This document shows positions 34,296 through 62,206 of a stretch of DNA of 64,000 nucleotides, in pieces. This stretch comes from Lytechinus pictus. Taxonomy: Eukaryota. How positions within the stretch are numbered: the first letter of the stretch is position 1; each line of letters begins with the position of its first letter. A program made the position numbers and the translations under genes. Under the pieces are notes generated by a model that saw only the letters and a program-made list of their open reading frames with translations, ran no database searches and was not told the origin of the DNA. The DNA is taken from contig NC_087250.1 in NCBI RefSeq assembly GCF_037042905.1, positions 14,262,001-14,326,000 on the forward strand. The letters are read 5' to 3'.

Positions 34296-35604
34296 CAGGG
34301 GCGGATCCAGTCTTCGCCAATAGGGGGGGGGGGGCGGAAATTTGTTTCAGCCATATTTCCCCCGATCGGCAGCTCGAAGATGATTTGTGTTTGTTTCTTT
34401 GAAGGGGTAGTCCTCATTAGTCACTTCTTAGCTTTATATTCATATAAATTCATATATAATATCATAATCCTTATTTATATGATGCGAGCGCGAAGCGCGA
34501 GCTAATTTATTGGAAATTTTATGTATTTTTCCCTAAAATTTGAACATTCTGGGCAATGTTTGTTATCCTGAAAAAAATATGTATGCAACTTAATAATTAC
34601 TACGAACGCAAAGCGCGAGCAGAAATGAACTGATGGAAAAGATACCTATTAAAGACTGCGTGCAGTTAGCATTTAACAATCAAATAATGCGAGCGCGAAG
34701 CGCAATTAGCTGATTTTTTTTTTACATTTTCACCTAAAGAATGGAAATTCTAAGCACTTTATGTAACTCAAGCAGAATATAGGTATATAGCGCGAGCGGA
34801 AAATTTCGAGATTTAGTCCTATAATATTTACTGAACGAGACACTCTATTCATGTTTTGTAAATCATGAGTATTAATCATGCGAGCGCATAGCGCGAGCAG
34901 AAAATTTTTATATACGTACCTGTTGAAAAGGTACCTGTTGAGGACTGCTTGCACTTAGCCATGAAGGTGTTACTTATTTCAACAATCAAAAAATGCGAGC
35001 GTGAAGCGCGAGATGAAACATTTTGAAAATTTCTAAAGAAAGTGGAAAATTTTAATCAATTTTTGTAATCGTGAACAGGATAGCTATATAATTCAATAAT
35101 TGATGCGAGCGCAAAGTGCTAGCAGGAAAAAAAAATCGAGATTTAGACCTTAAAATGGGCCACTCTGTTCATGTTTTGTAAACAGCCATAGGCTGATCGA
35201 GGGCTTTTTACCGTGTTTAAATAAAATAAATCAATCAAAATCAATGTTTTGTAAATCATGAAAAGGATGAGTAATAGGGGGTCTTCCTACATTAATAATG
35301 CGAGCACAAAGCGCGAGTAGAAAAAAAAATGATATTGTGATCTGAAACTGGATAATGATTTAAATAGAGAACAAGTTGAGTATTTGAATAAACATGCGCG
35401 CGTGTGTTTCATATTTAGACCTAGAATCTAGGCATTATAAATACATCTTTAATCATGAAACTTTGATATTCCGATCTGAAAAAAGAGTCAATTACAGCTT
35501 TATATTTCAAGCACTTTGTAGGAAAATTGTAAGGTGGATATGGATTGCACTTAAAAAAAGAGCTAAAATTGTCATTATTATTACTTTGAGTTTTGACATA
35601 GGAC
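34296..35604 (-). mobile_element. Truncated hAT-like element with TGCGAGCGCGAAGCGCGAGC repeats
   Basis: Starts caggggcggatcc; the motif recurs about eight times; it ends abruptly at the left end of the giant foldback. Confidence 0.55.
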
Positions 35605-36653
35605 CGGGACGCGTGTTTCCGTTTTACACCCTGGCGAAGGCATTTTCCGGAAAAATAGCCACAAAGCGACTTGTGAAGAGTCTACGTCTACGTTTGTTTA
35701 CATAATCAGCTGGGCGCGCGATCCAAAAGTCCGCACCGAAGATATCCGCAGAACATACGTGCAAATGCAGCTGAGCTTATAGACCAAAAGCGATCAGTCT
35801 CTGTATTTTGGTTGTTCCGCTGAACTATAATATACGTTGGCTTCATGATTTTTTTTACTTTATCGCACATGATCGTTTATATGAATGAAAACGAATAATA
35901 GCTAAAATATTGAAAAATAAAACACATAATTACTTTTTTTTTCATATTATATCTATCCTTATATCTATCATATCTGTCTATCCACTATCTATGTTATAAA
36001 TCAATCTATGGTACTACATGATATATCTATCTGTTAATTTGTCTATCTACTCTGTCTCTCTCATTCTCTATCTACCTATCTATATGTCTATCTATCTATC
36101 CATCTAACATCTATCTCTCAAATTCTCTATATATCCATCTGTCTCTCTTTTATTTCTCTCTATCCATCTGTTAATCTACTCATGTGCAATATCAACACTG
36201 CTTCGACTTCCTTCGGGAGTCTATTTCCTCAGCTCTACTTTTCCCTTTTTTGTGCTCGATTCGATTCAATTACTACTTTATTTACTTGTTACTATTGTTA
36301 AATGTCTTGTATTGCATAATGAGTTTTTTTTTCTGAAGGTTGCCTCCTATTCTCTTTCAAATTCCACCTCTTGCTTTCCCTTCTCTTTGTCTTATCCCAA
36401 TTTCTTTCCCTTCTCTCACCTCTTTCTTCTTAATCTTTCATTCCGCTTTTTTCTTCTTTGGTGACACTTTACTTTTGGCCTTTTGTATTTATTTATGATA
36501 CATTTATTTTTATCTGTATGAATTTGTATTGTATTTGATATTTATTTATAATGTTTACTTTATATTTTGTTATGATTCTATTTGTATGTAAACATTCACT
36601 TATTTCAGTCTTTGACTGCTTGTGATTTAATTTTGATAGTTTTTATTGCAATA

Positions 36654-36731
<78 letters not shown>

Positions 36732-37550
36732 AAATTCTCTCCATCTGTCTGCCTTTTTCTTTCTCTCTGTTTCTCTCTATCCGTCTATCTATCTCTCGAA
36801 TTCTCTCTATCCATCTGTCTGTCTGTCTGTCTCTCAAATTCTCTCTCTCTCTATCTATCTATCCATCTGTCTGTCTTTTTCTCTCTATCCGTCTATGTAT
36901 CTATCTCTCAAATTATATATCTATCTATCTATCTATCTATCTATGTAACTACATTATCTATCTCTTAATCTTCTTTGTCTCTCTCTCTCTATCTATCCAT
37001 CTGTCTTTCTCTAGTTCTCTCTCTCTCTCTCTATCAATCTATCTATCTATCTTCTATCTATCTATCTATATGTAACTGCAGTATCTATCGATCTGTTAAT
37101 TTGTCGCTCTTCTCTGTCTCTCTCATTCTTTATCTATATATATATCTATATCTATTTATCTATCTATCTATATATCTATCTAACATCTATCTATCTTTCA
37201 AATTCTCTATCTCTCTCTCCCTCTATCTATCTCTCCATCTGTCTTTCTCTATTTCTCTCTATCTATCTATCTTCTATCTATCTATTTATCTATCTATCTA
37301 TGTAACTACAGTATCTATCTATCTGTTAATTTGTCTATCTTCTCTGTCTCTCTCATTCTGTATCTATCTATCTATCTATTTATCTATCTATCTATATATC
37401 TATCTATAACATCTCTCCATCTCTCAAGTTCTCTCCCCCATCTATATATCTATCTATCTATCTTTTATCTATTTATCTATCTATGTAACTACAGTATCTA
37501 TCTATCTGTTAATTTATCTATCTTCTCTGTCTCTCTCATTCTTTATCTAC

Positions 37551-37583
<33 letters not shown>

Positions 37584-38262
37584 CATCTAACATCTACCTA
37601 TCTCTCAAATTCTCTATCTCTCTCTCTCTCTCTCCCTCTCTCTATCTATCTATCCATCTGTCTGTCTTTCTCTATTTCTCTCTATCTATCTATCTTCTAT
37701 CTATCTATTTATCTATCTATCTATGTAACTACAGTATCTATCTATCTGTTAATTTGTCTATCTTCTATGTCTCTCTCATTCTTTATCTATATATCTATCT
37801 AACATCTATCTATCTTTCAAATTCTCTATCTCTCTCTCTCCCTCTATCTATCTCTCCATCTGTCTGTCTTTTTTTTTCTCTCTTTGTCTATTTCTCTTTT
37901 TCCGTCCATATATATATATATATATATATATCTATCTATAACATCTCTCCATCTCTCAAGTTCTCTCCCCCATCTATATATCTATCTATCTATCTTTTAT
38001 CTATGTATCTATCTATGTAACTACAGTTCCTATTTATCTGTTAATTTGTCTATCTTCTCTGTCTCTCTCATTCTTTATCTATCTATCTAACATCTATCTA
38101 TCTCTCAGATTCTCTATCTCTCTCTCCCTCTCTCTCTCTCTCTTTCTCTCTTTATCTATCCATCTGTCTGTCTTTTTTTCTCTCTCTCTATTTCTCTTAA
38201 TCCGTCCATATATCTATCTATCTATCTATAACATCTCTCCATCTCTCAAGTTCTCTCCCCCC

Positions 38263-38316
<54 letters not shown>

Positions 38317-38317
38317 A

Positions 38318-38349
<32 letters not shown>

Positions 38350-38383
38350 CATCTCTCTGTCTTTCTCTCTCTCTCTCTACTTC

Positions 38384-38414
<31 letters not shown>

Positions 38415-39059
38415 GTCTCTATCTATTTATCAGTCTTCTATATCTATCTTTCGGCATCTAATTGTATCAATCCATCAAACTTCAATTTTCTTTCTATTAT
38501 ATGTATCTGTTTATTTTTTTTTTTCTGTCATTCTATTCATTTAGTTAATAATTTATATTTAGAAAAAAAAAACTTTTTCATAACTTTTCATTAAAAAAAC
38601 GTAACTGCAAAAGCATGTTCGGATTTCACTCATATGACTGCTCTCTGTACATGAAGTGCCGAGGAACTCTATGCTCTGATCAGTAACTGTGCAGATTGCA
38701 TGCGGTGGTGTGGGTGTGAGTCTACACACGTCGCTGGTTGCAGCGTGCGACACAGGCGAGCCCCACACCACCGGATGCAATCTGCACAGTTACTGATCAG
38801 GGCATAGAGTTCCTCGGCACTTCATGTACAGAGAGCAGTCATATGAGTAAAATCCGAACATGCTTTTGCAGTTACGTTTTTTTTATGAAAAGTTATGAAA
38901 AAGTTTTTTTTTTTCTAAATATAAATTATCAACTAAATGAATAGAATGACAGACAAAATAAAAATAAACAGATACATATAATAGAAAGAAAATTGAAGTT
39001 TGATGGATTGATACACATGCCGAAAGATAGATATAGAAGACTGATAAATAGATAGAGAC

Positions 39060-39118
<59 letters not shown>

Positions 39119-39195
39119 TATAGATAGATAGATAGATATATGGACGGATAAAGAGAAATAGAGAGAGAGAAAAAAAGACAGACATATGGATAGAT

Positions 39196-39238
<43 letters not shown>

Positions 39239-39561
39239 ATCTGAGAGATATATAGATGTTAGATAGATAGATAAAGAATGAGAGAGACAGAGAAGATAGA
39301 TAAATTAACAGATAAATAGAAACTGTAGTTACATAGATAGCTAGATAAATAGATAGATAGAAGATAGATAGAGAGAAATAGAGAAAGACAGACAGACGGA
39401 TAGATAGATAGAGGGGGGGAGAGAGATAGAGAATTTGAGAGATAGGTACATGTTAGATAGATAGATAGATAGATAGATAAAGAAAGAATGAGAGAGACAG
39501 AGAAGATAGATAAATTAACAGATATATAGATACTGTAGTTACATAGATAGATAAATAGATA

Positions 39562-39619
<58 letters not shown>

Positions 39620-39818
39620 GGGGGAGAGAACTTGAGAGATGGAGAGTTGTTATAGATAGATAGATATATATATATGGACGGAAAAAGAGAAATAGAGAAA
39701 GAGAGAAAAAAAAGACAGACAGAGGGATAGATAGATAGAGGGAGAGAGAGATAGAGAATTTGAAAGATAGATAGATGTTAGATATATATATAGATAGATA
39801 GATAAATAGATAGATAGG

Positions 39819-39853
<35 letters not shown>

Positions 39854-40127
39854 AGAATGAGAGAGACAGAGAAGATAGACAAATTAACAGATAGATAGAT
39901 ACTGTAGTTACATAGATAGATAGATAAATAGATAGATAGAAGATAGATAGATAGATAGAGAGAAATAGAGAAAGACAGACAGATGGATAGATAGAGAGAG
40001 AGAGGGAGAGAGAGAGACATAGAGAATTTGAGAGATACGGTAGATGTTAGATGGATAGATAGATAAAGAATGAGAGAGACAGAGAAGATATACAAATTAA
40101 CAAATAGATAGATACTGTAGTTACATA

Positions 40128-40655
40128 TGTAAGAGTTGAATTTTGCCTCATTTAATATAATTGTTTATTTCACACTTTGCTTTCCATACTTCTCTTCACT
40201 ACCATTTCTATGCCTCTGTCACACACCTGTTTCTCTCATTCCTTAGTTTCTTCATCACATCATTCCATTGCCATTCCAACTCCATACAGCTTCACATGTT
40301 TCTATTGTTATTTTCTCATTTACATTCAGAACATTCTTCTTCATTCATATCATCTTACCTCATCCTCATTGGTTCACCTTTCACCCTTGGTTCCTCCACT
40401 TTTCTGGGTTCTCCCATTCTCTGTTTCTCTATTGGTTGAATTTATCATGTGACATTATTTTTGAATATATTTGAATGTATTATTTGTGAAGGCAATGCCT
40501 AGTGAGGTCTGCATTGCAGACCAATAAACCAGAGCACTACTAGACTTCATTTTAGTCAACATCTTTATTTTTGAGTTTAGTTCAATATAATATGAGTTTG
40601 CTTGTTTCTGACTGATTTGTGAGGTAGACATGTTAGAACTCTCGGCCACACTACA
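40128..40655 (+). repeat. 5' LTR (528 bp)
   Basis: TGTAAGAG...CCACACTACA; AATAAA at ~40524; near-identical to 48261-48785. Confidence 0.95.
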
Positions 40656-40658
40656 AAC

Positions 40659-40672
40659 TGGTAGCAGCGGTG
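40659..40672 (+). promoter_or_regulatory. Primer-binding site
   Basis: TGGTAGCAGCGGTG 3 nt after the LTR; resembles the complement of the 3' end of tRNA-Leu (TGGTGGCAGCGGTG) or, less well, tRNA-iMet (TGGTAGCAGAGG). The primer tRNA is unresolved. Confidence 0.8.
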
Positions 40673-41145
40673 TCTCCCTAACTTCAGGCAGAGTTTGCAG
40701 CCAGTGATAGCCCTACCAAGCTAATTTCACCCTGCTTCAACTGACATGTTAGCTCTTCCTCCTTCAGTAAAGCTATTTGCCTCCTACTTTATGTGCATAG
40801 ACTTCAATATACTACTCATTGTGGGTTTAGTACTTTAAGCATTTTGCAACCTGCTTCAAGTCTTGATTTCTCCCTTCATCTTGAATTTTAGCGGAGTAAA
40901 TTTGTCTACATATTTGAGTAAGTCTACCACCATTTTGTCAGATATCATATATATTTGATGTCATCCTTCATCATTTATTCTCCAGTTATTTATTAGTATG
41001 CAACTTATGAGATAGTATTTTCATCCTTTGCATGATTAGTAAGCTCCCTCCTTCATTAAGACACTTTTATGCTGTTAATGAAAGTTGATCGCCCTTCTTC
41101 ATTTACATGAACTTGTACAGCATTGTCTGGTAGTCTTAATTCATC

Positions 41146-42240
41146 ATGGCAATGTTTCGCCTTGAATTACCAGAGACTTTCACTGGAGAAGGTCAAGATT
41201 TTCACCAATGGGTGAAAAGATTTGAAGTTGCAGTTGACTCAGTAGGCAGTAGTAATGCTCAGAAACATAGCTTGCTTCCTTCCAGACTTTCAGGTTCAGC
41301 ATTTACTGTCTGGGAAAATATTCCTGATTCTGATAAGAAAGACTTTGAGAAAGTAAAGACAATTCTTTCAGAAATATTTGGCAGAAAAACATACCTAACA
41401 AACTTCCGTTCTTGTGTTACTGCACGGACTAGACAGCCCCTAGAACCTATTGAAGTATTTGCAGCAGCTATTTCAACGTTAGTTGGTGAAGCTTTTCCCA
41501 AGTACGATGAGGAAGCTCAAGATGGTGAGAAGTTTCGTCGCTTCATGGCAGGCTTAGACTTACAGCTGAGGAGAAAGCTATATGAATACGGTGTCGAATC
41601 TTTCAAGCAAGCCGTTAATACTGCAGTTCGCATAGAACAAGCAACACTTTTGGGTCAGTCTGATAGTACTCAGATTCAAGTGGCTGCTACATCCAAGTCT
41701 GAGAACTCAAACGATGCACTCATGCAGCGTATTGCCTCCCTAGAGGAAAAGATTGAAACACTCACGATGTCAGGTCGCTCAAGATCTCCTTCCTCCTTCG
41801 AGAAAAGACCACATGACAGAAATTATCATCGGTCACCATATTCAAGTCCAAATAGGTACTCACGTGGTGATGATAGATCATACCATCGTCGGTCAGCATA
41901 CTCGAGTCCGACTAGATACTCCCGTCGCGATGAAAGGCCATATCATGGACATCGTTCACCCTCATCTAGTCCGACAAGATATGGGTACCACCACGATAAG
42001 CATACTTACCAGCAAGAGAGATCACGACATAGATCATATCCCCATTCTTATCATGATTCCTCCCTTCATCGATCAGACTCACCTAGAAGGAAATTCTCGT
42101 CGCCCTCATCCAGTCCGACAAGATACTCGTCGCACTCACAGTCATCCTCCTTCAGACGTCCCCCTACTCCGCCCAGAAGGCAACGGAATGTTCGCTTCAA
42201 CGACCAAGCTGATAGAACTTACCAGGGAAACTACCTCTAG
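41146..42240 (+). CDS. gag: Gag (capsid-like N-terminus, coiled coil, RS/YH-rich C-terminus)
   Basis: 364-aa ATG ORF; PETFTGEGQDFHQWVKRFE, RQPLEPIEVFA and RFMAGL are retrotransposon capsid-like motifs. Confidence 0.93.
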   Translation: MAMFRLELPETFTGEGQDFHQWVKRFEVAVDSVGSSNAQKHSLLPSRLSGSAFTVWENIPDSDKKDFEKVKTILSEIFGRKTYLTNFRSCVTARTRQPLEPIEVFAAAISTLVGEAFPKYDEEAQDGEKFRRFMAGLDLQLRRKLYEYGVESFKQAVNTAVRIEQATLLGQSDSTQIQVAATSKSENSNDALMQRIASLEEKIETLTMSGRSRSPSSFEKRPHDRNYHRSPYSSPNRYSRGDDRSYHRRSAYSSPTRYSRRDERPYHGHRSPSSSPTRYGYHHDKHTYQQERSRHRSYPHSYHDSSLHRSDSPRRKFSSPSSSPTRYSSHSQSSSFRRPPTPPRRQRNVRFNDQADRTYQGNYL

Positions 42241-45200
42241 TTGGTGATGCGGGTCACTCATCAACTCCCACAACTACGGCCCAAGTAAACAAAGAAAATG
42301 AATCCGAGTGTTTGCCGCAACAACCACCCTTCATCCCTGTAATCCTAGACAACACATATGTCTTGGCGTATTTAGACTGCGGATCATACACCTCCCTTGT
42401 CAGCAGTGATTTCTATGACTCAATACCAAAGTCTCAGAGAAGCCCTCTAGTGAAATCCACTATTGCAGCAACGTCTGTCACCAAACAGCTTCTAGACATC
42501 ATCGGTACCATTGACATCATCCTACATCTTGGTAATACTTCACGACGACATACGTTCATGGTTGCCAGAGGAATAAGCCACCCTGTCATCATAGGTTGGG
42601 ATTTCTTTTGGAGAAACGACGCAGTACTCTCCACTACTACGTTCACCATGCCAGGTGTAACGATACCTCTAGTCGACAAGCACCGTTACCAAGCCCCTTT
42701 CAAGTGCAATGTTACACTGGTAGGACAAGTCTCTATACCAGCAATGAGTGAGATACATGTCCAAGGCAGACTAGAACCTCAACAACCAGACCTTATCCCG
42801 CAAGGATATGATGGTATCTTTGAGCCAACATTACAAGAATATCATCCTGTAGCTGGTGCCAGATCAGTGAACACAGCCCAAGACGGTCTCATCCTTGTTA
42901 GACTGGTCAATACATCTCAAGAAAAGGTTGATCTTACAGTGAACACCACCCTTGGTCACTTCCACTCACTGACCAGTGATCCAGAAGAAGAATACAAGAT
43001 CTTCGATAAGGTGATTGCAGCTACCCAAGAGGCAAAACCAATCTTACCAGTAGATGACATGCTTTCCAAATCAGACCTTACCAAGGAACAGTATGACAAG
43101 ACCAAGCAAGTTCTAAATTCCTATGCTGATGTGTTTAGCTCATCTCAAGAAGATATAGGACAGGCTGATGTCTACCACAAGATAACCACAACGAGTGACA
43201 CACCCATCCGTCAAAGAGCTTATCGCACATCACCTACCATGCGATGTGAAATTCAGAGACAGGTAGATAATCTTCTTGAACGTGGAATTATCGAAGAAAG
43301 CCACAGTCCTTGGTCGAGTCCTATAGTGATGGTAAAGAAAAAGGACAACACATACAGATTATGTGTTGATTACAGAGCTCTCAATGCCGTCACCATCAGA
43401 GACTCTCACCCGATACCTCGTCAAGATGATTCTGTTGACGCCCTCTCTTCGTCATCCTACTTCAGTGTCATGGATCTTTCAAGTGGTTATTGGCAGATAA
43501 GACTTGACCCAGAAAGTAAAGAGAAGACAGCCTTCACTACCGGTACTGGCTTATATCATTTTAATGTCATGCCATTCGGCTTAGTAAATGCACCAATGAC
43601 ATTTCAGCGTCTTATGGAATCTGTCTTACATGGTCTGCATTGGTCGACTTGTCTCATATACCTCGACGACTGTATTGTGATGGGTAGAAGCTTCGAAGAA
43701 CATCTCCAAAACCTCCAAGAAGTCCTCCAGCGCTTCAAAGACGCCGGATTGAAGTTGAAACCTACCAAATGCCAATTTCTACAGAAGAAAGTCAACTATC
43801 TAGGCTATGTAATTGGTACACAAGGAGTGCTTCCAGATCCAAACAACACAGCCAAGGTTGCAGCATGGCCAAGACCCAAGAATCCTTCACAAATCAGATC
43901 GTTCTTAGGCCTTGCTTCATTCTATCGTCGATTTATTCCATGCTTTGCCCAAGTTTCCACACCTCTTACCAATCTGACGCACAAAGGAACGCAATTCGTC
44001 TGGAATGCCGACTGTGAAAACGCCTTCATCAAACTGAAAATGGCACCTACCAATCCACCCATATTAGCATTTCCTAACTTCAACAAGACATTCAACATAG
44101 CCACAGATGCTTCTAGTGATGCTGTTGGAGCTATTCTCTCCCAAGTCCAAGATGGAAGAGAACACGTCATAGCCTACTACAGCCACAAACTATCAGAAAG
44201 TCAGAAGAGATGGTCTACATACGATCGAGAATTGTGGGCCATTGTCGCAGCTGTACGACACTTCCGCCACTATCTTAGAGGCCAGCCTTTCTCAGTATAC
44301 ACAGACCACCAACCACTTCTAGGATACATGAAAGTACCAATCCAAGACGATGCAACTGGTAGACGTGCACGCTGGATAGTAGAATTGGATGCCTATTCCT
44401 TCAAGATCATACATCGCAAGGGACGCTCCAATCAGAATGCTGACGCACTCTCTCGACGTCCACACAACCACTCAAGAGATAACCAAACTAATCTCCTACA
44501 TCAAGACCAAACCAGTTGTAATGTAGTTCACACAAGGTCTACTATGAAGTCTTACACTACTCAAGGATCGACTGAACACAAGTCCCAAAGTACTAACCAG
44601 ACGCAACCAGAAAATTTCGTTCTAGCCGATCAGCAATCTGAGTTGCAAGAACGCCAAGAACAAGACCCAGACATCAACCAAGTCATGGAGTATGTCAAGT
44701 TGGGATATCGACCATCTGTCAGAGAAATACGTCGCTTCAATCCCCGTACGAGACGACTACTCTGGGAATACCCTCGTCTGACAATTAAGGGAAACATACT
44801 CTATCGTATGAAATATGATAGACTTGGCACAACAATACTTCAACCAGTCATACCTCAAAAGCTCATTCCTAAAGTACTCGAAGAACTCCATGGACATCCT
44901 TCATCAGGCCATTTCGGAATTCAGCGCACACTTCATCGAGCAGAAGCCACATGTTATTGGCCATTCATGAGACGAGATATTACCAACCATTGTTCTACTT
45001 GTATGGCATGCGAGTCGTTCAGGTCACCAAATCCAAAACACCAAGCCCCATTACGAAGTATAACGACTGATCACCCTTTTCAGATGATCTTCGCCGACAT
45101 CGCTGAAATCCCCATTTCTCGCCGTGGATATCGCTACATACTAGTCATCATCGACCACTTCACAAAATATGTCAACATCTACCCTATGAGGAACCAAACT

Positions 45201-45974
45201 GCCGAGACGGTCGCCAAGCACATCTTCGAAGACTACGTCACAGAGCATGGTGTGCCAGAGACTCTGCACACTGACCAAGGTCGACAGTTTGAGTCAAGGC
45301 TCGTACAACAACTTTGCGAGAAACTTGGAATTCGCAAATCCAGATCTTCGCCTTACCATCCTCAAGGTGCTGGAATGGTCGAACGAGCAAATCGTGTGAT
45401 CAAAGAACAATTAGCACGATATGTCGCTGACAAACGTGGAGATTGGGATTCTCACCTCCCTCAACTACAACTTGCATACAACTCAAGTGTCCACTCCACA
45501 ACAGGACTTAGTCCCTACTTCCTTCTTCACGGAAGAGAAGCTCGAGTTCCAGTGAACATAACATGTCCAGTTCCAGCCCAGCAACATACTACCTCACCAG
45601 AACAGTATGTTATGGATCTCCAACAACGTCTTAAGAAAGCATTTCATTATGCCAAGCACAAATCTGAACTTGCCCAAAAGCAGCAGAAAGTAGGTTACGA
45701 CATGAAGACTCGTACCATCAAGTACTCTGTTGGAGACTTAGTTTGGCTTCATGACCCAGCAAATGCCAGACACAAGCTACAACCAAACTGGACCGGACCA
45801 TTTTCCATTATGTCTTCCTCAGAAGATGGTTTGAACTATCGTATTGAAGACATCCATAATCAGAGAATACAGAAGGTAGTGCATCATAACAGACTGAAGC
45901 TCTTCAGATCGAAACTACCTCAACCACCTGAGTCTAGTAAAGAAGGTGGAACTCATCCAACCATCCCTCCTTAA
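42225..45974 (+). CDS. pol: Pol polyprotein (PR-RT-RNase H-integrase), probably expressed by -1 frameshift
   Basis: LDCGS protease; RT MPFGL and YLDD; RNase H TDAS/DREL/TDH/NADALSR; integrase HHCC, D-D-E (ADIA, TDQG, VERAN) and GPF. The frame is open back to the slip site at 42225. Confidence 0.96.
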   Translation, partial: GKLPLVGDAGHSSTPTTTAQVNKENESECLPQQPPFIPVILDNTYVLAYLDCGSYTSLVSSDFYDSIPKSQRSPLVKSTIAATSVTKQLLDIIGTIDIILHLGNTSRRHTFMVARGISHPVIIGWDFFWRNDAVLSTTTFTMPGVTIPLVDKHRYQAPFKCNVTLVGQVSIPAMSEIHVQGRLEPQQPDLIPQGYDGIFEPTLQEYHPVAGARSVNTAQDGLILVRLVNTSQEKVDLTVNTTLGHFHSLTSDPEEEYKIFDKVIAATQEAKPILPVDDMLSKSDLTKEQYDKTKQVLNSYADVFSSSQEDIGQADVYHKITTTSDTPIRQRAYRTSPTMRCEIQRQVDNLLERGIIEESHSPWSSPIVMVKKKDNTYRLCVDYRALNAVTIRDSHPIPRQDDSVDALSSSSYFSVMDLSSGYWQIRLDPESKEKTAFTTGTGLYHFNVMPFGLVNAPMTFQRLMESVLHGLHWSTCLIYLDDCIVMGRSFEEHLQNLQEVLQRFKDAGLKLKPTKCQFLQKKVNYLGYVIGTQGVLPDPNNTAKVAAWPRPKNPSQIRSFLGLASFYRRFIPCFAQVSTPLTNLTHKGTQFVWNADCENAFIKLKMAPTNPPILAFPNFNKTFNIATDASSDAVGAILSQVQDGREHVIAYYSHKLSESQKRWSTYDRELWAIVAAVRHFRHYLRGQPFSVYTDHQPLLGYMKVPIQDDATGRRARWIVELDAYSFKIIHRKGRSNQNADALSRRPHNHSRDNQTNLLHQDQTSCNVVHTRSTMKSYTTQGSTEHKSQSTNQTQPENFVLADQQSELQERQEQDPDINQVMEYVKLGYRPSVREIRRFNPRTRRLLWEYPRLTIKGNILYRMKYDRLGTTILQPVIPQKLIPKVLEELHGHPSSGHFGIQRTLHRAEATCYWPFMRRDITNHCSTCMACESFRSPNPKHQAPLRSITTDHPFQMIFADIAEIPISRRGYRYILVIIDHFTKYVNIYPMRNQTAETVAKHIFEDYVTEHGVPETLHTDQGRQFESRLVQQLCEKLGIRKSRSSPYHPQGAGMVERANRVIKEQLARYVADKRGDWDSHLPQLQLAYNSSVHSTTGLSPYFLLHGREARVPVNITCPVPAQQHTTSPEQYVMDLQQRLKKAFHYAKHKSELAQKQQKVGYDMKTRTIKYSVGDLVWLHDPANARHKLQPNWTGPFSIMSSSEDGLNYRIEDIHNQRIQKVVHHNRLKLFRSKLPQPPESSKEGGTHPTIPP

Positions 45975-46577
45975 AACTCACAACCTCCTTCAAGTTTTCA
46001 ATCTCATCCTCAAACTTCCTTCATCGAATGGTCAACTACCAAACCACAACTGACGACAGATACTGGCCAACCATCATGGTCAGGGCAGTCTGTCTCTACA
46101 CCTGATGCCCAACGTCCTCCTTCATCTGACCAACCATCATGGTCAGGACAGTCTCGCTCCACACTAGATGTAAAACGTCCTCCTTCATCTGACCAACCTT
46201 CATGGTCAGGGCAGTCTCGCTCTACACCTGATGCCCAACGTCCTCCTTCATCTGACCAACCTTCATGGTCAGAATTGTCATCGCCAGATGTTCACCCCCA
46301 GTCTACATCTGACCAACCATCATGGTCAGAGCCCATCCAGCCGAGGCGAGAAGTTCGTAGAACTGACCGGAATCAGTCAGATGACCAACTACTACCAAAC
46401 CCCTCTGATGAGCGCACACCAGGTCTTCCTAACCAAACCCCAGGTCCATCCGATGTCAGACACCATAATGCCCCTCAAACTCAACCCCATGGACGTCCAC
46501 CAGATGAGAACATCACAACTACGCGTTATGGACGAAGAGTAAAAATACCAAAAAGATTTTGCGACGTTGAAAAATGA
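45975..46577 (+). pseudogene. In-frame continuation of pol beyond a single TAA, with 60-bp repeats
   Basis: Same frame as pol and open to TGA at 46575-46577; repeats DQPSWSGQSRSTPDAQRPPSS; ends TTRYGRRVKIPKRF. Confidence 0.75.
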
Positions 46578-48243
46578 TAATGTGAATTTATTGATTTCAG
46601 CTTTTACATTTACAATTTTAACCTTTCAAAGAAATAGCAACGATGAGAGTAAATTCAACAAAATCATCCAAAATTTAATGATTCCCATGCTTCAATCTTC
46701 GAACTGGAACATTTTAAACTTTTTTGAAGAAATTTCAAGCACCAAAATATTCAAGAGACTGAACTTATTTGAAAACGTAATCTTCAACAGTCAACATCGC
46801 GATGATATAGAAATTTGAACACCAAGGAACTTTTTCCAAGAAGAAGATAGTGAAATGTTGTAACAAGAATCGACAAATATATTCTATTTCTAGAACAACA
46901 TTTAAAAGTAATATAATTTTTAATAGAAAATAATCATCAATTAAAATCAACTACTAAATGAGGAAATATCTCAACCGAACTGTAAGAACATTTGAAGAAA
47001 ATTAACATTCGGAACGTTGAATTCTTTTAAAAAACATTTTGATCGAGCAATCGTTTGAAATTTTTGCTATTTTTCATGTTATATTATGTGACATTTGAAT
47101 TAATTGCATGTGTATCATGTATTTTCATAAATGCCTCAATATTTTCATACTATTACAAAACCATTTTATGCTCTTTTTACACAACGGGCTAATTTTTTCC
47201 CTGCACAGTACGGAAATTAGGTATTTTGCTTGTATACATTGTACCAAGTCATCTGGTACATGTACAAAAATATTGGACGATTTTGATATACAAAGTTTTA
47301 ACAAAAATTATATTTTTTTTCACTTTTATATTAGGTTACCAATTACAGATTGTACAAGTTGATGCAGTTCAATACTTTTAGAAGTTAGTGTTTTTAAAGA
47401 ATCAAGTTATTCAAATTGTAATTTTGCGAACAATAACAAAAACAGTTCAAAAGTTTAATAGAAACTGATATTTTCTTTCATTTTGAAATTTTCCAAATAA
47501 AAGATCATGTGATGTATAGTTTATTTAACAGAAAAGAAAAGTTCAGTATTATGTATGTTTTCTTTTCATATTCAAGCACATTTAAACATATTTCTGAAGT
47601 TTCTTTAAAAAAAAAGAAGAAAAAAAAGAGAAAGTCAATTTAGTGATCTGAGGATTTCATTTTAAATCCGCAAAAGTAAATATTTGTATAAAAATAATAC
47701 TTTGATATTATTCAGTTCTCGTTATTGTACAGATTACTGTATATTGTGCTTTATAGAACACAGGCAAAAAAAAAAAAAGTTTTATTTCTTGCTGTGTTAG
47801 CAACATGTATATTGAAAAGGGACTAAACAACTTTGCCATGTATATATAAATTTATGTTTAAAGATTTGCATTTATTGAAATGAAAGAAATACAGATGTAA
47901 TTCATGTTCTTGTATTTCTATTGCAACTGACAGAAGAACAACATTCATTGATCTTATATTTTGTTCAAATAAACAAGTAAAACGTTTTCATTTGTAAAAA
48001 AAAAAAAAAATGATTAATGTTCTTTCTGGATAATTTCATTTTGGCAAATTTCAAATTATCAACAACAAAAAATTGTTTTACTGACAGATGCAAAAGTTGC
48101 AGATAATGCTTAAAAATATATATATTTATGGATTTCCTCAAAGAAAGTACTCATCCTCAATTTTTGAATCCAAAAGTTTTCGGAAAACTACTTTGGACAA
48201 ATATGTATCAATGTGAAACTTATAAAAATGAGGACATTTTTTA

Positions 48244-48256
48244 GCGAAGAAGGAAG
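48244..48256 (+). promoter_or_regulatory. Polypurine tract
   Basis: gcgaagaaggaag 4 nt before the 3' LTR. Confidence 0.75.
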
Positions 48257-48260
48257 TTTA

Positions 48261-48785
48261 TGTAAGAGTTGAATTTTGCCTTATTTAATATAATTGTTTA
48301 TTTCACACTTTGCTTTCCATACTTCTCTTCACTACCATTTCTATGCCTCTGTCACACACCTGTTTCTCTCATTCCTTAGTTTCTTCATCACATCATTCCA
48401 TTGCCATTCCAACTCCATACAGCTTCACATGTTTCTATTGTTATTTTCTCATTTACATTCAGAACATTCTTCTTCATTCATATCATCTTACCTCATCCTC
48501 ATTGGTTCACCTTTCACCCTTGGTTCCTCCACTTTTCTGGGTTCTCCCATTCTCTGTTTCTCTATTGGTTGAATTTATCATGTGACATTATTTTTGAATA
48601 TATTTGAATGTATTATTTGTGAAGGCAATGCCTAGTGAGGTCTGCATTGCAGACCAATAAACCAGAGCACTACTAGACTTCATTTTAGTCAACATCTTTA
48701 TTTTTTAGTTTAGTTCAATATATGAGTTTGCTTGTTTCTGACTGATTTGTGAGGTAGACATGTTAGAACTCTCGGCCACACTACA
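48261..48785 (+). repeat. 3' LTR (525 bp)
   Basis: By eye it differs from the 5' LTR by two substitutions and one 3-bp indel. Confidence 0.95.
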
Positions 48786-48806
48786 CATAGATAGATAAAT
48801 AGATAG

Positions 48807-48863
<57 letters not shown>

Positions 48864-48960
48864 GGGGGAGAGAATTTGAGAGAGGGAGAGATGTTATAGA
48901 TAGATAGATATATATGGACGGAAAAAGAGAAATAGAGAAAGAGAGAAAACAAGACAGATG

Positions 48961-49010
<50 letters not shown>

Positions 49011-49021
49011 GGGAGAGAGAT

Positions 49022-49052
<31 letters not shown>

Positions 49053-49158
49053 TAGATAGATAAAGAATGAGAGAGACAGAGAAGATTAACAGATAGATAG
49101 ATACTGTAGTTACATAGATAGATAGAGATAGAATTTGAGAAATAGATAAATAAATATA

Positions 49159-51223
49159 CACAACAAAAAAAGTAAGTCCCCCCTAAATCAAATTGTTGTA
49201 ACTTTTGAACGGAGTTATTTTGAGATATGATATTTCGTAGGAGGTTTTCTACACTCATTAAGCAACTCCTGGGGAAAAATGAAAGTGATCGGTTGAGTCA
49301 TGCATGAGTAATTAAAGATTGAATTAAAAATGACCATTTTTGAAAGTCACAAGAGTCGTTTTTCAGATTGTGGAAATACAAAGTTGGGCAAAAGTCGTTT
49401 TTAGGTGAATTTTATGGTGTTATGCTGTTTTACTATCCATCATTTAGCCACTCCACACACAATTTTGATATCGCATGTTCATGGTTGAGTGAGCACAATA
49501 TCGCAGGGGCCGCGGAAGCGGGTTGGGGGCCCACTTTTTTCCAAAAGCATGTACAAAAATGTAAAAATGACCATACGATTGTGATTTTTTGCATGGTCAG
49601 CCCCCCCCCCCCCCACTTTGCCGGCTCAGCCCCTCCCCCCACACTTTTAAAACCGTTCCGCGGCCCCTGTATTGTGATGTATCATCATAGGGGTTTTTGG
49701 TAGTATCCTCTACAACTTGTTAGGTCATATTAGAATTTGAAAATGTTGGTGGCTCCCCCGATTATAGGCCCCTCCCCCATTTTTAAATTATGGATCCACC
49801 ACTGATTTGTCCATAGATTAAACTGATCATGAGAAATTGTTAGGAAAAGAATACATTTATGCAGTATAAAGAGTATTCATTCCTAAGTTTTCGAATGTGC
49901 TCGCTCAACCATGAAAATGATAAAAGTTCAGAAAGTGTGTGGTGATAGAAACAGCAATTAAAGTCACATTTGAAACCGAATTTGCCCCCAATATTCACCT
50001 TATTACCCTTTAAAATGAGTCTGTGACATTGAAAATACCAATTTTCCCACTTTGATGCGTGCTCACTCATCCGTAAATAAACAAATCGATTTCATTTTTG
50101 CACAGAATTCTGCCCATAGGTTGATAAACATTACTGCCAAATGACATTGCTAAAGACAGCCTTGAAAAAAAGTTCCACCATATTGAAAAAGGGGTTACTT
50201 ATTCTTAAACATATGCACCCATAATGTACACAAGTCTATGAGAGAGGAAGTCAAAATTTTAACAAATATGAAATGAGGGTTTGTTTCATGGACGGTTTGT
50301 GTTACTTCTGCCAACAGTTATTTCATGAAACTTCGCACATGGCTTCAGAGTAACACTATCCAAAAGGCGCGCACACCAAAATAACAATTCGATACGGCAC
50401 AGAGTGGGGCCAAGGCCTTGAACTTTCTTCTCATTTGCATAATTTTCGAATATTGTGTGCTCACTGATGCATTAAACATCGGGATTTTCATAAAAATCAA
50501 ATCAAATGAACCATGCAAGGAGGTTTGTGACAGATATCCATAGTTACAAATTGCATTTTTTCCAATAACGTAAAACAGAGCTTATCACATTCCACATGGT
50601 CATTCAAGCGTGAATGTTTAATTAAACACCTTTGAATCATTGAAGCATGTTAATTGGTCATAAACATAACGAAAAAGTTGATAAAAGATCAGTTTCAGTT
50701 ACCAAAATGAAACAATATTTGCCTATGATATTTGAAAATCGTATTTTTTGTTTTCAATAAATGTTCATTGAACCGTGAAACGATGAATATTGTTGAAGAT
50801 GCTCTTCCCAAAAATAACTGTCATCATATTCTTTTATTTTTATTGATGAAAATGTGTAAAAAATCAAATTATAGCAAATTTGGACTTGTGTTTATTCAAC
50901 CGTGAAATTTAGCCAAAAAAATTGTATCGTCTTTTAGAAAGTACCTTTTACAAGCCTTCTTTCTGTTTTTCATGATGAGAATGTGGAATCAGTTCCAATA
51001 AAATGGAATCAAGTCGTGATTTTTGGCTTGTGACTTTTGAAAAGTGACATTTTTGCCTTCTGACGGTGCTCACTGAAGCATGACGTAAAATACATCCATA
51101 ACATTTACTTAGAGGGTAGCTTATAAAATTACCTACACGCTCATGTAAAAATATATCAAAAACTCGCATTGGTTCGGAAATTATTGATGTTTGTTCAAGG
51201 GGGGACTTACTTTTTTTGTTGTG
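49159..51223. mobile_element. 2.06-kb non-autonomous DNA transposon (TA TSD, CAC...GTG ends; Tc1/mariner- or CMC-like)
   Basis: TA-CACAACAAAAAAAGTAAGTCCCCCCT ... AGGGGGGACTTACTTTTTTTGTTGTG-TA; contains a small element caggggccgcggaa...ttccgcggcccctg at 49504-49669. Confidence 0.9.
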
Positions 51224-51724
51224 TATAGATAGAAGATAGATACAGAGAGAAAGACAGAAAGATGGATAGATTGATAGAGAGAGGGGGAGAGAGAGATAGA
51301 GAATTTGAGAGATAGATAGATGTTAGATAGATAAAGAATGAGAGAGACAGAGAAGAGCGACAAATTAACAGATCGATAGATACTGCAGTTACATATAGAT
51401 AGAAGATAGATAGATAGATTGATAGAGTGAGAGAGAACTAGAGAAAGACAGATGGATAGATAGAGAGAGAGAGAGACAGAGAAGATTAATAGATAGATAC
51501 TGTAGTTACATAGATAGACAGATAGATAGATAGATATATAATTTGAGAGATAGATACATAGACGGATAGAGAGAAAAAGACAGACAGATGGATAGATAGA
51601 TAGAGAGAGAGAATTTGAGAGACAGACAGACAGATGGATAGAGAGAATTCGAGAGATAGATAGACGGATAGAGAGAAACAGAGAGAGAGAAAAAGACAGA
51701 CAGATGGATAGATAGAGAGAATCT

Positions 51725-51783
<59 letters not shown>

Positions 51784-51970
51784 TGGATTTTATTGCAATA
51801 AAAACTATCAAAATACAATCACAAGCAGTCAAAGACTGAAATAAGTGAATGTTTACATACAAATAGAATCATAACAAAATATAAAGTAAACATTATAAAT
51901 AAATATCAAATACAATACAAATTCATACAGATAAAAAAGAAATGTATCGTAAATAAATACAAAAGGCCAA

Positions 51971-52225
51971 CATGGGTCGGCCTAATTATTAATGGGTCGG
52001 CCTAATTATTAATGGGTCGGCCTAATTATAATGGGTCGGCCTAATTGTAAGGATTTTTTTCCTTTTTGGCTGCCACCCCTCAGTATGATTCTGAATCATA
52101 ATGCAATTTTTAGACTGTCTTTTACACTGATTTGTAATACATGTATTTTAACTTTGTATTATATTTGTTTTTTATGTAAAGGTTTTACTGAGAGAATAAA
52201 ACAATTTGAAACAATTTGAAATTTG
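51971..52225 (+). mobile_element. 5'-truncated LINE tail inserted in the foldback right arm
   Basis: Absent from the left arm at ~36475; ends AATAAA + (TTTGAA)-type tail; starts with four ~21-bp tandem repeats. Confidence 0.65.
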
Positions 52226-52990
52226 AAAGTAAAGTGTCACCAAAGAAGAAAAAAGCGAAATGAAAGATTAAGAAGAAAGAGGTGAGAGAAGGGAAAGAAA
52301 TTGGGATAACAAAGAGAAGGGAAAGCAAGAGGTGGAATTTGAAAGAGAATAGGAGGCAACCTTCAGAAGAAAAAACTCATCTGCTCATTATGCAATACAA
52401 GACATTTAACAATGGTAACAAGTAAATAAAGTAGTAATTGAATCGAATCGAGCACAAAAAAGGGAAAAGTAGAGCTGAGGAAATAGACTCCCGAAGGAAG
52501 TCGAAGCAGTGTTGATATTGCACATGAGTAGATTAACAGATGGATAGAGAGAAATAAAAGAGAGACAGATGGATAGAGAGAGAATTTGAGAGATAGATGT
52601 TAGATGGATAGACAGATAGATAGGTAGATAGAGAATGAGAGAGACAGAGTAGATAGACAAATTAACAGATATATATATCATGTAGTACCATAGATTGATT
52701 TATAACATAGATAGTGGATAGACAGATATGATAGATATAAGGATAGATATAATATGAAAACAAGTAATTATGTGTTTTATTTTTCAATATTTTAGCTACT
52801 ATTCATTTTCATTCATATAAACGATCATGTGCGATAAAGTAAAAAAAATCATGAAGCCAACGTATATTATAGTTTAGCGGAACAACCAAAATACAGAGAC
52901 TGAAGCTTTTGGTCTATAAGCTCAGCTGCATTTGCACGTATGTTCTGCGGATATCTTCGGTGCGGACTTTTGGATCGCGCGCCCAGCTGA

Positions 52991-53810
52991 CAATGACAAT
53001 GACAATGATTTCATTTCTTTGACGGCCCCTCCTGGGGGCATAGAAGAAATATAACAACTTACAACAATGGCAATAATAGGCATAAGAAAAAAATACCAAG
53101 GTAACAAAAAAAATAGATTAATAAAAAGAAAGAAAAAAAAAGAATCAAACATGATGATAATAAACATATGTACAATACAAGAGCAGTAATAGAAATAGAA
53201 ATAGAAACGGGCACAAATTAACCCACCCACTCCCGACATGCCAGAGAGTATCTGGAGTCCGGTACCCCACTGAGCATGTGCAGGTGCAATCCAACAAAAT
53301 CTGAAATCATGCCCTAATACGAGAAAGTAACCAAGACAGCAACTACACTTAAGATATTAAAATTTTGACATAATGAATTTACTAAATCTTGACAGATTTT
53401 TCAAGTCTTTTGTATTTCGCATATTAAACAGCTTGTGCATTTTAATCACGTTCGGTCTGACAAAATAATACCCTCTAATTAAAGCTTTCCTTTCACTTTC
53501 AAAAGCAGGACAATTAAACACATAATGAAACTCGTCACCTGGCTCATGCGAGTCACATAGAGTACAAGTTTGCAAACCTTGATTAGGCAGGTAACGACCA
53601 TTAGCAATTGGCAATCTATGATTTCCACAACGATATTTACAGAGTTCAATCCTATCTGCAAAATCTAATTTCACTAAATAGTTCTCAAACCCAAAATCTT
53701 GTTTGAATATCCTATAATTCATGCACAAACGGTTTCTATTAATTTCAGTATTCAATTCCTGTTTAGCAATATCATCCAATCTGAGACTCACAGTTGACTT
53801 AACCCACTTA
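52991..53810 (-). mobile_element. 5'-truncated LINE (RTE-X-like) 3' end
   Basis: YRIFK..FENYL..YRCGNHRLPIANGRY..CTLC..DEFHYVFNC C-terminal zinc-binding motif, stop at 53357, 3' UTR and (ATTGTC)n tail; absent from the left arm. Confidence 0.85.
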
Positions 53811-54347
53811 ACGTAAACAAACGTAGACGTAGACTCTTCACTAGTCGCTTTGTGGCTATTTTTGCGGAAAATGCCTTCGCCAGGGTGTAAAACGGAAACG
53901 CGCCTCCCGCGCGCGGGGGGGGGGCACTTCCATTCACGAGTGGATACCATGCGCGACCATGGGGTCTTGAAAAGCACCCTAAACACGTAATTTCCATATT
54001 CTGAAAATGCACCTCTTAACAAGTATTGGCGTGTGAAACCCTACCCTTAACAAGTATTGGAAACAAAACCATACTCTTGGCAAATATTCCCTGAAATGAA
54101 CCCCTAAACAAGTACATGAATGTTTTATTGTTACGGGTCCTTCGGTCGTCGGCTTTAGTCTGGTCTGTTAGCGAAATTATGTGGACACGGTGGACAAAAG
54201 CGTGATTTTTTTCTCCAGACCTTTGTTTACGTATAAGAATTAAGAATGGGGTATGCTCCAAAAAATCTGGCTGCAGGAACAGAGAAAAATGGGTGAAAAT
54301 GTCAGAATTTATGAGTTTAGATTAATTAGTCTGATATATAGACTATG

Positions 54348-55772
54348 TATTATGACTAGGAACTGAACCCCCCCCCCCCGAAAAAATAGGGGGCTGATAT
54401 ATTTTTTGAGCAGAAAATTCCCCCCCCCCCCCCCTTAAAAGGTAAGAAGAGTCCTTTGCACTTCAGACCATTCATTTGAAGTTTAATGCATTCTCATTTG
54501 ATAAAAAAAAATGTTTACGGTACCCAATTAACCATTGTTTATTTATATTCTCCTACTCAGTCTTTTATTCATATTCATATTCCGTTCCTACTCTTTCTTT
54601 TTAACTTTCACATCACTCTTGATTTTGAGCTTCACCATACCATCTCCTTCTGTTTCATCTCTCTATCCAAGTATATTTTTTCTGACATATTTTAAAGTGT
54701 ACCTTTAATCGTGCAACTAATTATAGAAATATAAATATATACAAAAATCTCTGCACTTGTTTTAGAAATTCACTTGCAAATCCATGACTCAATAACATAC
54801 CATATCAAAAATATACATATGTGCACAATAGAATTTAGCCTTATATTTTCTTTCATTTAATTTTCTTCAGTATATTTCTGTGATAGCCCCTGCTTTATAC
54901 ATCATACATCTCCCATTGTCAAAAAATGAATATTATGTTTCAGTAGCAAAATTTTTGGATGCAAACTCTGACTGTCATAAAAACAAATGCAAATAATTTT
55001 CCATTGGAGTAAAGACAAACTTATAAGGGATATGACTAGAATATAATTATATGTCGAGAAACTTTTATTTCTCTACATATAATTATATTCTAGTCATATC
55101 CCTTTCAGATGGTGGTAACAGCAGGAATGGGAAAACTCAGTGATATAATATAAAACTAAAATTTTCACAGAGGATTTTCGGAAAATAACTACATCCATTT
55201 TTGTCAAGCAACAGTTATTCCATTCTGAATGCTGCAACCTTGTTAATATGAATTTGATGTACCTTTACCAAAATATAATATCATGAGTCATTTCTTCAAT
55301 TCTTTAAACTAGAAATTAAATATTGCTAATAGTATCGACAGAGTGTAGCCAAAATGGAGTTTAAAAGATTATGAAGAAAAAAAAATAAATTTCATGGTAT
55401 TATATTTCGGTGTCGGTGTAAGCATTCAAAATGGAATAATTTTTGCTAGAAAATAATGAATTAAAATAGCAAAAAAAATGTACTTAGAAAGGGAGACAAA
55501 GAGGGGGGGGGGAAGAGAGGAAACAAAACAAGAAGGTATGGTAAAGCTCAAAAGTGCAAAGAGTGATGAAAGACAGTCAGAGTAGGAACTGAAATGAACA
55601 AAGACTGAGTAGAAGAAGATATAATAACACATTGATTAATTGGACACCGGAAACCATTTTTTTTAAAGCAGAATGTTTTAGGCTTTAAATTAATACGCTG
55701 AAGTGTAAAGGATTTTTCTCCCCCCCCCCTTTTTTTTTTTTTTGGGGGGGGGTTAAGTTCCTAGTCGTAATA
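54348..55772. repeat. Diverged foldback with a near-perfect central hairpin
   Basis: tattatgactaggaactgaacccccc / ggggggttaagttcctagtcgtaata; ctactcagtcttt / aaagactgagtag; centre hairpin 55025-55104. Confidence 0.65.
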
Positions 55773-55859
55773 ATTTCCTTTTACTCTTTATGTGGCAATT
55801 TTCTAAAGCCCCCCCCCCAAAAAAAAAAAATGGAAGGAGTGTTTTTTTTTAGTGTTTAA

Positions 55860-56441
55860 AGGGATGGTCCGGGCTGAAAATATTTATATCTTAATACATA
55901 GAGTAGAATTCACTGAGCAAAATGCCGAAAATTTCATCAAAATCGGATAACAAATAATAAAGTTATTGAAGTTTAAAGTTTATCAATATTTTGTGAAAAC
56001 AGTCGTCATGAATATTCATTAGGTGGGCTGATGATGTCACATCTCCACTTTCTGTTTTCTTATGTTATTACATAAAATAATAATTTTTTCATTATTTCAT
56101 ACTTGTGCGAATAATATGTCTCCCTTATAATGAAATCAGTTGCAGCAATAAATATCTAATGCACTAAATCAGTTGTCAATCCAATTTTTCTAGTTCTTGG
56201 AGGAAAAAAATTGAATAAACCTAATTTCATATAATAAAATACAAAAGAACAAGTGGAGATGTGACATCATCAACCCACGTAATGAATATTCATGACGACT
56301 GTTTTCACAAAATATTGCTAAACTTTAAAATTCAATAACTTTGTTATTTGTTATCCGATTGCGATGAAATTTTCAGCATTTTGCTCAGTGAATTCTACTC
56401 TATTTATTAAGCTATAAATACTTTCAGCCTGGACCATCCCT
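55860..56441. mobile_element. Kolobok-like MITE
   Basis: TTAA-AGGGATGGTCCGGGCTG ... CAGCCTGGACCATCCCT-TTAA. Confidence 0.9.
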
Positions 56442-56581
56442 TTAAGTTCCTAATGGTCATGGCCTTTAACATTCTATATTATTATGTTGTCAGTTTTTAA
56501 GGACCTTCTCCGCCCCCCCAAAAGAACCTATAAATATTATTGAAGGTGATTAATACCCTGCGCTATTATATGACGTTATAA

Positions 56582-57165: not shown

Positions 57166-57189
57166 TTACCACTGAATATGAATCTTTAC

Positions 57190-60228: not shown

Positions 60229-60336
60229 TTAAATAGGCATATACTCAACAATTTGATGATAAAAGTAAACACCTGTGTTGATTTTTTTTATGCTTTGTGA
60301 GATGGTGGGGTCGATTGGATTATTTTACCACATTGA

Positions 60337-62072: not shown

Positions 62073-62206
62073 CTATTGGAAAAGAAATTTACATTGTCAT
62101 ATTATCATTAAATGATTCAGAGATTATATTAGGCCCGTAAAGACTGAAACATGATCGAAAAAGAACATGGAAGGCAAAAAAAATGACTTCAGTGTAAAAC
62201 ATACAT

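Follow-up and report, generated by a model that had tools for sequence, protein, structure and literature searches.

A microsatellite-armed palindrome of about 6.5 kb in the sea urchin Lytechinus pictus and its possible origin from a transposon with short inverted repeats

We describe a large, interrupted palindrome in a 64,000-nt stretch of Lytechinus pictus DNA (NCBI RefSeq assembly GCF_037042905.1, contig NC_087250.1, positions 14,262,001 to 14,326,000 of the forward strand; hereafter the window, in whose coordinates all positions are given), which is repeat-rich animal DNA with 36% GC and zero N. Self-BLAST and pairwise alignments revealed an inverted duplication centred on 38715-38761. 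The palindromic sequence is transposon-like and is present in other samples. Judged from its letters, the palindrome appears to be a derivative of a DNA transposon whose terminal inverted repeats (TIRs) have been extended, with the element's right part in both arms ("right-right") and the architecture of a foldback element; as it fails the test for a target-site duplication (TSD), we do not file it under a mobile foldback family. Our preferred explanation, which we consider probable on balance, is that the right part of a monomer was copied in inverted orientation over the element's own left end, either through a template switch or in the course of fold-back repair.

Arms, centre and age of the palindrome

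The left arm (35611-38714) is 3,104 bp long and free of insertions. The right arm (38762-53903) has a net length of 3,334 bp once four insertions are subtracted, and the whole palindrome then comes to ~6,485 bp. A preliminary description of this DNA had proposed a giant hidden palindrome of ~6.3 kb, with 3.1-kb arms around a 47-bp spacer and four insertions on the right; the palindrome, its spacer, the insertions and the left arm's length were borne out, while the right arm and the total proved longer. Inverted pairs are formed by 35605-35700 and 53814-53909, 35705-36475 and 52226-52989, 36476-36661 and 51783-51970, the TATC arrays, and 38453-38714 and 38762-39024.

The modules follow one another in the order first described. 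The left arm, read on the + strand, opens with a short terminal module of ~75 bp, probably the original TIR (35611-35685, inverted copy at 53829-53903), followed by a subterminal segment that passes from CpG-rich to AT-rich (35686-35945), an isolated TATC-type unit, unit 0 (35946-36180), and an AT-rich unique segment ending in AATAAA and (TA)34 (36181-36728), possibly an old retroposon 3' end caught prior to the duplication. Then come a structured (TATC)n/(TC)n array (36729-38452), with higher-order units of ~130-290 bp and 6 anchors, and an inner unique segment (38453-38714), identical to 38762-39024 at 251 of 258 aligned bases. The 47-bp spacer consists of a junction (38715-38725) and a piece that we assign to the monomer's subterminal sequence (38726-38761). 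The right arm lies on the - strand as an inner unbroken piece of 1,366 bp (38762-40127), a piece of TATC array (48790-49158), a piece with TATC, (TA)n and part of the AT-rich segment (51226-51970), an outer middle piece (52226-52989) and a terminal piece including the TIR module (53814-53903). As had been noted, the arms are without coding capacity, their reading frames being of low complexity only, and within the window the unique arm segments have no second copies beyond weak matches of 22-63 bp.

Divergence between the arms is low and even. Mismatches in the six unique segments number 4/96, 5/236, 4/223, 3/283, 4/186 and 7/258, together 26/1,276 or 2.0% (95% interval 1.3-3.0%; the first six bases, 35605-35610, are omitted from the count). 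The segments are homogeneous (chi-square p 0.73), as would be expected of one copying event, and the arms are thus of one age, as extension of a TIR by inverted self-copying predicts. Array mismatch (104/1,661, 6.3%) was rejected for dating because paralogous units misalign. The split of the arms is older than the Gypsy-type insertion in the right arm, whose paired long terminal repeats (LTRs) differ at only 2/525 positions against the arms' 26/1,276 (Fisher p 0.010); the order of events is therefore dated, with the arm copy at ~2% and the Gypsy insertion at ~0.4%.

These differences also bear on the danger, raised at the outset, that the centre junction is an artefact of library or assembly in which a hairpin read was assembled as a palindrome. 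A folded read would give identical arms, and here 26 of 1,276 unique positions disagree between them, as does the number of array units; moreover, one arm carries four insertions, two of them with clean TSDs. An artefact is therefore very improbable, and the palindrome is a real, well-preserved structure.

The arrays are built of higher-order units with a common core of ~60 bp, with 6 anchors on the left and 7 on the right, and each has lost different sub-modules. That the microsatellite halves are simple mirrors is ruled out by the unequal unit numbers and these arm-specific losses. The outermost units nevertheless match from arm to arm (unit 0, and unit 2 including its diagnostic variants), which argues that the array is older than the duplication and has changed separately in each arm since.

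The inner uninterrupted arms (1.24/1.37 kb) align with 1,033 matches, 28 mismatches and 481 gap positions, the longest perfect run being 86 bp. The innermost ~1.4 kb is indeed uninterrupted, as first proposed, but the cruciform or long double-stranded RNA suggested for it finds no support, the spacer being 47 bp long and the inner arms interrupted by indels. According to a review, inverted Alu repeats stalled eukaryotic replication forks with a 12-bp spacer and not with one of 52 bp (PMC7999016); by analogy, the 47-bp spacer may plausibly be the reason for the palindrome's survival and would argue against an active cruciform.

Folded, the centre takes a T shape, with two small hairpins at the tip of a long stem. 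Taken alone, the spacer folds at chance level (108 of 200 shuffles were as good, z 0.10), so the mini-hairpin gtcgc...gcgac once picked out in it is no better than its shuffles; one of the two small stems is present only across the junction. A functional T-shaped hairpin is accordingly rejected, and the fold is a by-product. The same shape might bring to mind a hairpin-replicating element, which we take to be parvovirus-like in its terminal hairpin, left here as an integrated head-to-head replication dimer. We regard this as largely refuted and very improbable, given the chance-level fold of the spacer, the stem that exists only across the junction, arms without coding sequence and a terminal pattern unmatched in viral contigs; the marks of a single-stranded DNA virus remnant, a T- or Y-shaped hairpin above chance together with Rep or capsid genes, were not found (z 0.10, no open reading frame in the arms). 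Exact scans gave zero matches for the terminal pattern in viral, prokaryote-genome and metagenome contigs and zero for the centre pattern in metagenome contigs, which is expected for animal DNA and in that sense uninformative. Four Rfam matches at E up to 1, all to microRNA-precursor families, lie far below gathering scores on the hairpin centre or (TA)n and were discarded.

Outside copies, ends and origin of the inverted arms

Of 24 public runs listed as sharing sequence, four were mapped, onto 35200-35945 only: X1 (organism A), X9 (organism B), X14 (organism C, probably DNA) and X22 (organism A, rRNA-depleted RNA, ~6% of the run read). The highest share reached was 0.46 of words, partly through the repeat that flanks the palindrome on the left, and no RNA run was named as a holder, which counts neither for nor against. 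In X14, one contig among the matches listed (record 15; 434 nt at a depth of 25.6) spans 35611-35685, differing at three positions and having the right arm's letter at each, and beyond them 30 of 30 visible letters equal 38726-38755. The outer 75 bp and the centre spacer are thus immediate neighbours in this contig. It has 359 loose letters, where 364 would be expected had it crossed the inner arm as far as the first tract of pure GATA (39060). An overlap of 8 bp cannot misjoin an assembly built on 31-letter words. This contig makes it probable that a short-TIR, non-palindromic form of ~3.4 kb exists and that a stub of its left TIR survives in the spacer; the 75-bp TIR, the spacer piece and the window's right arm would together make a full monomer of ~3,445 bp. 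The preliminary description had held that finding the segments elsewhere only singly, never as inverted pairs, would count against it; this is partly what we see, in that the sole informative outside contig runs from the outer end straight to the spacer.

The other runs agree on the end module. In X1 the depth falls from 128 to 72 to 32 across 35685, with ~112 of 134 depth units leaving at ~35684-35685, and the bin holding the exit point, predicted at 70.2-74.6, was observed at 71.5; among the matches listed, one 876-nt contig runs from 35657 into the arm. The module is therefore discrete in X1 too. In X9 the terminal 115-160 bp stand at very high summed contig depth (2-7 x 10^5 over 35600-35724, against 15 at 35850-35874), a figure that is not copy number, and the interior has almost none; arm interior depth is 15-80 in X9 and X14. 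In X14 the 75-bp module is followed by the spacer, in X1 and the window by the arm, and no single contig has both ends. Over 35611-35940, ~4 letters are private to the left arm and 3 to the right when compared with the outside copies. Those of the left arm are at 35614 and 35672, where all four runs have the right arm's letter, and at 35650 and 35792-35793, where the runs are mixed; those of the right arm are at 35822, 35892 and 35898 (X14 record 16 shows 0 other letters against the left arm). Private letters in both arms are expected if both started near the family sequence.

In the RNA run X22, whose organism may differ from the window's, depth does not exceed 13 per direction over 35600-35749 and stays at 0-2 over 35750-35774 and 35850-35945. 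It peaks at ~35794-35826 because reads continue into another repeat: this 33-bp motif is common to an abundant repeat with several hundred X22 RNA reads in both directions.

The centre junction carries its own traces. Its start, 38715-38725, resembles the inner TIR end, with an exact 8-mer shared with 35678-35685. In 20,000 shuffles such an 8-mer arose by chance in 0.5% for the spacer's first 15 nt against the arm's first 100 nt, in 2.8% for the whole spacer and in 5.7% against the whole arm. In addition, 38714-38718 is the reverse complement of 38725-38729, and three junction bases foreign to both donors, complementary to 38726-38728, complete this 5-bp stem, which suggests a short insertion copied from a template, unless the three letters are the left arm's TIR itself, displaced by a slip of 3 nt. 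GTG at the junction is common to both donors. The inner junction thus holds a scar of microhomology or insertion (the 8-bp TIR match, the 3-nt scar and GTG), as TIR extension of the Galileo 2RT or Goblin type would leave.

The outer ends probably lie at 35609-35611 and 53903-53905, rather than at 35605 and 53909 as first described, and the arms do end, as stated there, against two unrelated elements. On the left is a dispersed repeat (34400-35610, + strand): in X9, 60 contigs of this repeat, among the matches listed, align through 35610 and have other letters beyond. The flank repeat is therefore cut here, and 35605-35610, which matches the right end at 5/6, probably belongs to it. Its usual continuation was not found beside the right end with a 15-nt motif at up to 3 mismatches (three window matches, at 28010, 49579 and 55490, none adjacent). 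On the right is an unrelated miniature inverted-repeat transposable element (MITE; 53906-58481). Since the flanks are different repeats, they were never contiguous, and DNA has been lost or exchanged at the site. The reported lack of a TSD was confirmed: none of at least 3 bp was found at 12 symmetric end positions, where only 2-bp CG/GC direct matches occur, with 3-4-bp CG-rich matches at asymmetric offsets. Assignment to a superfamily failed, the exact end being uncertain within 35605-35611; the 11-nt terminal motif had no match in the full-text literature searched. The terminus may resemble PIF/Harbinger ends.

We propose the following course of events. The start would be a non-autonomous DNA transposon of ~3.4 kb with TIRs of ~75 bp, in the order left TIR, 36-bp subterminal piece, inner unique segment, TATC array, AT-rich segment, CpG-rich segment and right TIR. 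With its left end broken or under re-synthesis, the element would have served as its own template: a new strand would have been copied, inverted, from its right part, the priming being due either to a switch from the left to the right TIR or to a fold-back at a 3-4-bp inverted microhomology with a loop of ~50 nt, and would have been rejoined where the left TIR has its inner border. This would yield a right-right inverted dimer with a 47-bp spacer retaining the TIR stub; loss of the left-flank DNA in the same or a later event would leave no TSD. Later, each arm would have drifted by ~1%, array units would have been gained and lost separately, four insertions would have entered the right arm, and the present state would be inert repetitive DNA. 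Both primings fit and are inseparable on present evidence. Fold-back priming would account for the missing TSD, the cut flank and the 5/6 inverted match beyond the ends in one event.

Several points weigh against this account. The version with a TIR switch predicts a preserved TSD and, none being found, requires a second event; the local foldbacks of yeast reach only ~150 bp (PMC11724301) against ~3 kb here. Among the matches listed, the evidence for the monomer comes from a single contig of a single run out of the four mapped; the sample is perhaps another species, and only 30 of the 359 extra letters of that contig are visible. The contig could itself be a deletion product at the 8-bp match, and X14 depth is zero at 35700-35774, so that this run does not show the right end of the monomer itself. 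Uniform divergence fits two copies of one young family equally well, and private letters in both arms are also compatible with copies fused by deletion or with a long-armed family.

It could thus be argued that two 3.4-kb monomers inserted nearby in opposite orientation and that a deletion of their inner ends and the intervening DNA left the 47-bp asymmetric centre. A single deletion would account for the unrelated flanks, the missing TSD and the cut left-flank repeat, both arms are about equally distant from outside copies, and a TIR stub at the centre would be expected. We consider this unlikely, since it needs two near-identical, close insertions from a family of low abundance (arm interior depth 15-80 in X9 and X14) and leaves the reverse complementarity of 38714-38718 and 38725-38729 and the 5/6 match beyond the ends unexplained. 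To a long-armed palindrome that is itself the mobile unit of a foldback family, with the short form of organism C as its deletion product at the 8-bp microhomology, we likewise give a low probability. The same terminus stands on both ends, and the layout is Tetris-like in its flanking domain, ~200-bp tandem units, inner domain and short middle (PMC4079207). However, there is no TSD, the microhomology sits at the spacer edge, where X1 depth also drops (chance 0.5-2.8%), and a second palindromic copy did not come to light in searches that were weak ones. Of the two origins first offered, a transposon family or a local inverted duplication, the account that we favour keeps something of each: the sequence is transposon-like, but its layout is read as a secondary inverted self-duplication of a short-TIR monomer rather than that of a long-armed foldback family.

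Insertions and other elements of the window

The insertions in the right arm comprise a Gypsy-type LTR element, a TIR element and two pieces resembling long interspersed nuclear elements (LINEs). The first (40128-48785, + strand, TSD CATA) appears young, with LTRs (40128-40655 and 48261-48785) identical at 523 of 525 positions. It has gag (41140-42240) and pol (42216-45974, with reverse transcriptase, RNase H and integrase) overlapping at 42216-42240; past the pol stop the same frame is open for another 200 codons, which contain 63-bp repeats (45975-46577), and downstream of these are ~1.7 kb of AT-rich non-coding DNA. Among the reading frames listed, none of at least 120 aa is env-like. The second (49159-51223) is a non-coding TIR element of 2,065 bp, TA-flanked, with a 26-bp perfect TIR (31/34) and a nested small inverted-repeat element at 49504-49669. 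The third (51971-52225, + strand, 255 bp), which opens with a 20-bp tandem repeat and has a short tail of tandem repeats, may be a LINE-like 3' end. The fourth (52990-53813, - strand) is a 3' piece of a non-LTR retroelement, at whose site ~4 bp of the arm were lost; its 151-aa open frame has zero Pfam matches, and the nearest named Atlas cluster is zf-RVT (53% of members, score 0.93). Chance alone would put all four insertions into the same arm with a two-sided probability of 1 in 8, which is not significant.

The MITE on the right flank is interrupted by a 4,029-bp TIR element (54156-58184) with a 3-bp TSD, CTT, and TAG...CTA ends, which may point to the Academ superfamily. Elsewhere in the window, arrays of the same 15-bp unit with the same short lead-in lie at 9433-9580 and 32917-33095, 23 kb apart in opposite orientation; they may mark the ends of a single TU-like foldback or be copies independent of each other. 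The window also holds four MITE-like elements that are short and self-palindromic (6361-7186, 17472-18087, 55856-56445 and 62204-62519), with related copies at 28590-29111 and 30371-30978. Tandem arrays at 15016-16448 (60/51-bp units) and 19264-20401 (11/24/152-bp periods) have a short palindromic core in common, and an inverted pair at 56567-57168 and 59633-60243, 81% identical, possibly forms the ends of another element. Coding-type sequence includes a C2H2 zinc-finger exon with ~17 tandem fingers (60337-62088, - strand) and a 90-bp coding-type repeat at 63249-63790.

Comparison with known systems

The palindrome shares with foldback elements of the FB, Tetris and TU types long modular TIRs with internal tandem repeats (arms of 3.1/3.3 kb, 6/7 units) and a short non-coding middle domain (the 47-bp spacer, with no real open reading frame). 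It does not share their TSD, of 8-10 bp in Tetris, since its flanks are different repeats and none was found at the 12 end positions. Tetris of Drosophila virilis likewise has a flanking domain, ~220-bp tandem units, an inner domain and no open reading frame, and a shorter partner with the same ends, DAIBAM, as the palindrome has a candidate short form; in contrast, its TSDs are of 8-10 bp, three copies of it are complete, and DAIBAM was read as a deletion product where we read the short form as a parent (PMC4079207).

Closer in proposed history is Galileo 2RT of Drosophila mojavensis, whose TIRs became longer as inverted internal sequence was added to them, with repair of one TIR from the other as the proposed route (PMC3573991). 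It too is non-autonomous, with ~210-bp tandem TIR units of variable number, and chimeric Galileo copies also lack matching TSDs. Its TIRs, though, reach ~1.26 kb against ~3.1-3.3 kb, nearly the whole element, in the palindrome; Galileo belongs to the P superfamily with 7-bp TSDs, whereas the palindrome is without known transposase, TSD or superfamily, and its units, unlike Galileo's, are microsatellite-derived (PMC3573991). The Goblin MITE of Aedes aegypti, derived from the Tc1/mariner element Ozma, has both subterminal regions from the right end, for which a switch from left to right TIR during gap repair, microhomology end joining and a small insertion scar were proposed; it measures 213 bp with 54-bp TIRs and was amplified to 15 copies, whereas the palindrome is of ~6.5 kb with one copy known (PMC3814204).

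Fold-backs at human and yeast breaks resemble the palindrome in having a single-copy spacer, a few base pairs of inverted microhomology or a templated insertion, loss of adjacent DNA, and 0-5 bp of homology where the other end was captured (PMC3907307, PMC11724301). Local foldback inversions of yeast have a 41-nt loop and 0-5-bp capture homology and extend over at most ~150 bp, against ~3 kb here (PMC11724301); those of human cells are of megabase scale with spacers of 766-70,466 bp (PMC3907307), and the palindrome's ~3 kb end at a transposon terminus. Descriptions of this element, or of inverted-dimer or right-right elements, were absent from the literature searched, outside which lie most subscription journals and Repbase.

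The class of mechanism is already known, and the points of interest are the scale and the visible candidate parent. Galileo and Goblin are the cases from which an origin of foldback elements in short-TIR transposons has been proposed; here a junction scar is preserved and a candidate parent is present in a public sample, which makes the model testable at near whole-element scale. The locus also lets the turnover of microsatellite-derived units be followed in each of two arms of equal age. A right-right dimer with two intact ends might itself be mobile, in which case a 6.5-kb microsatellite-armed foldback family would have arisen by one repair step from a 3.4-kb parent, with parent and product both extant among related sea urchins. 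We offer this as a doubtful possibility. A lone, dead dimer would be an ordinary repair scar in a repeat-rich genome; a mobile one would be a directly testable before-and-after case of the origin of a foldback element.

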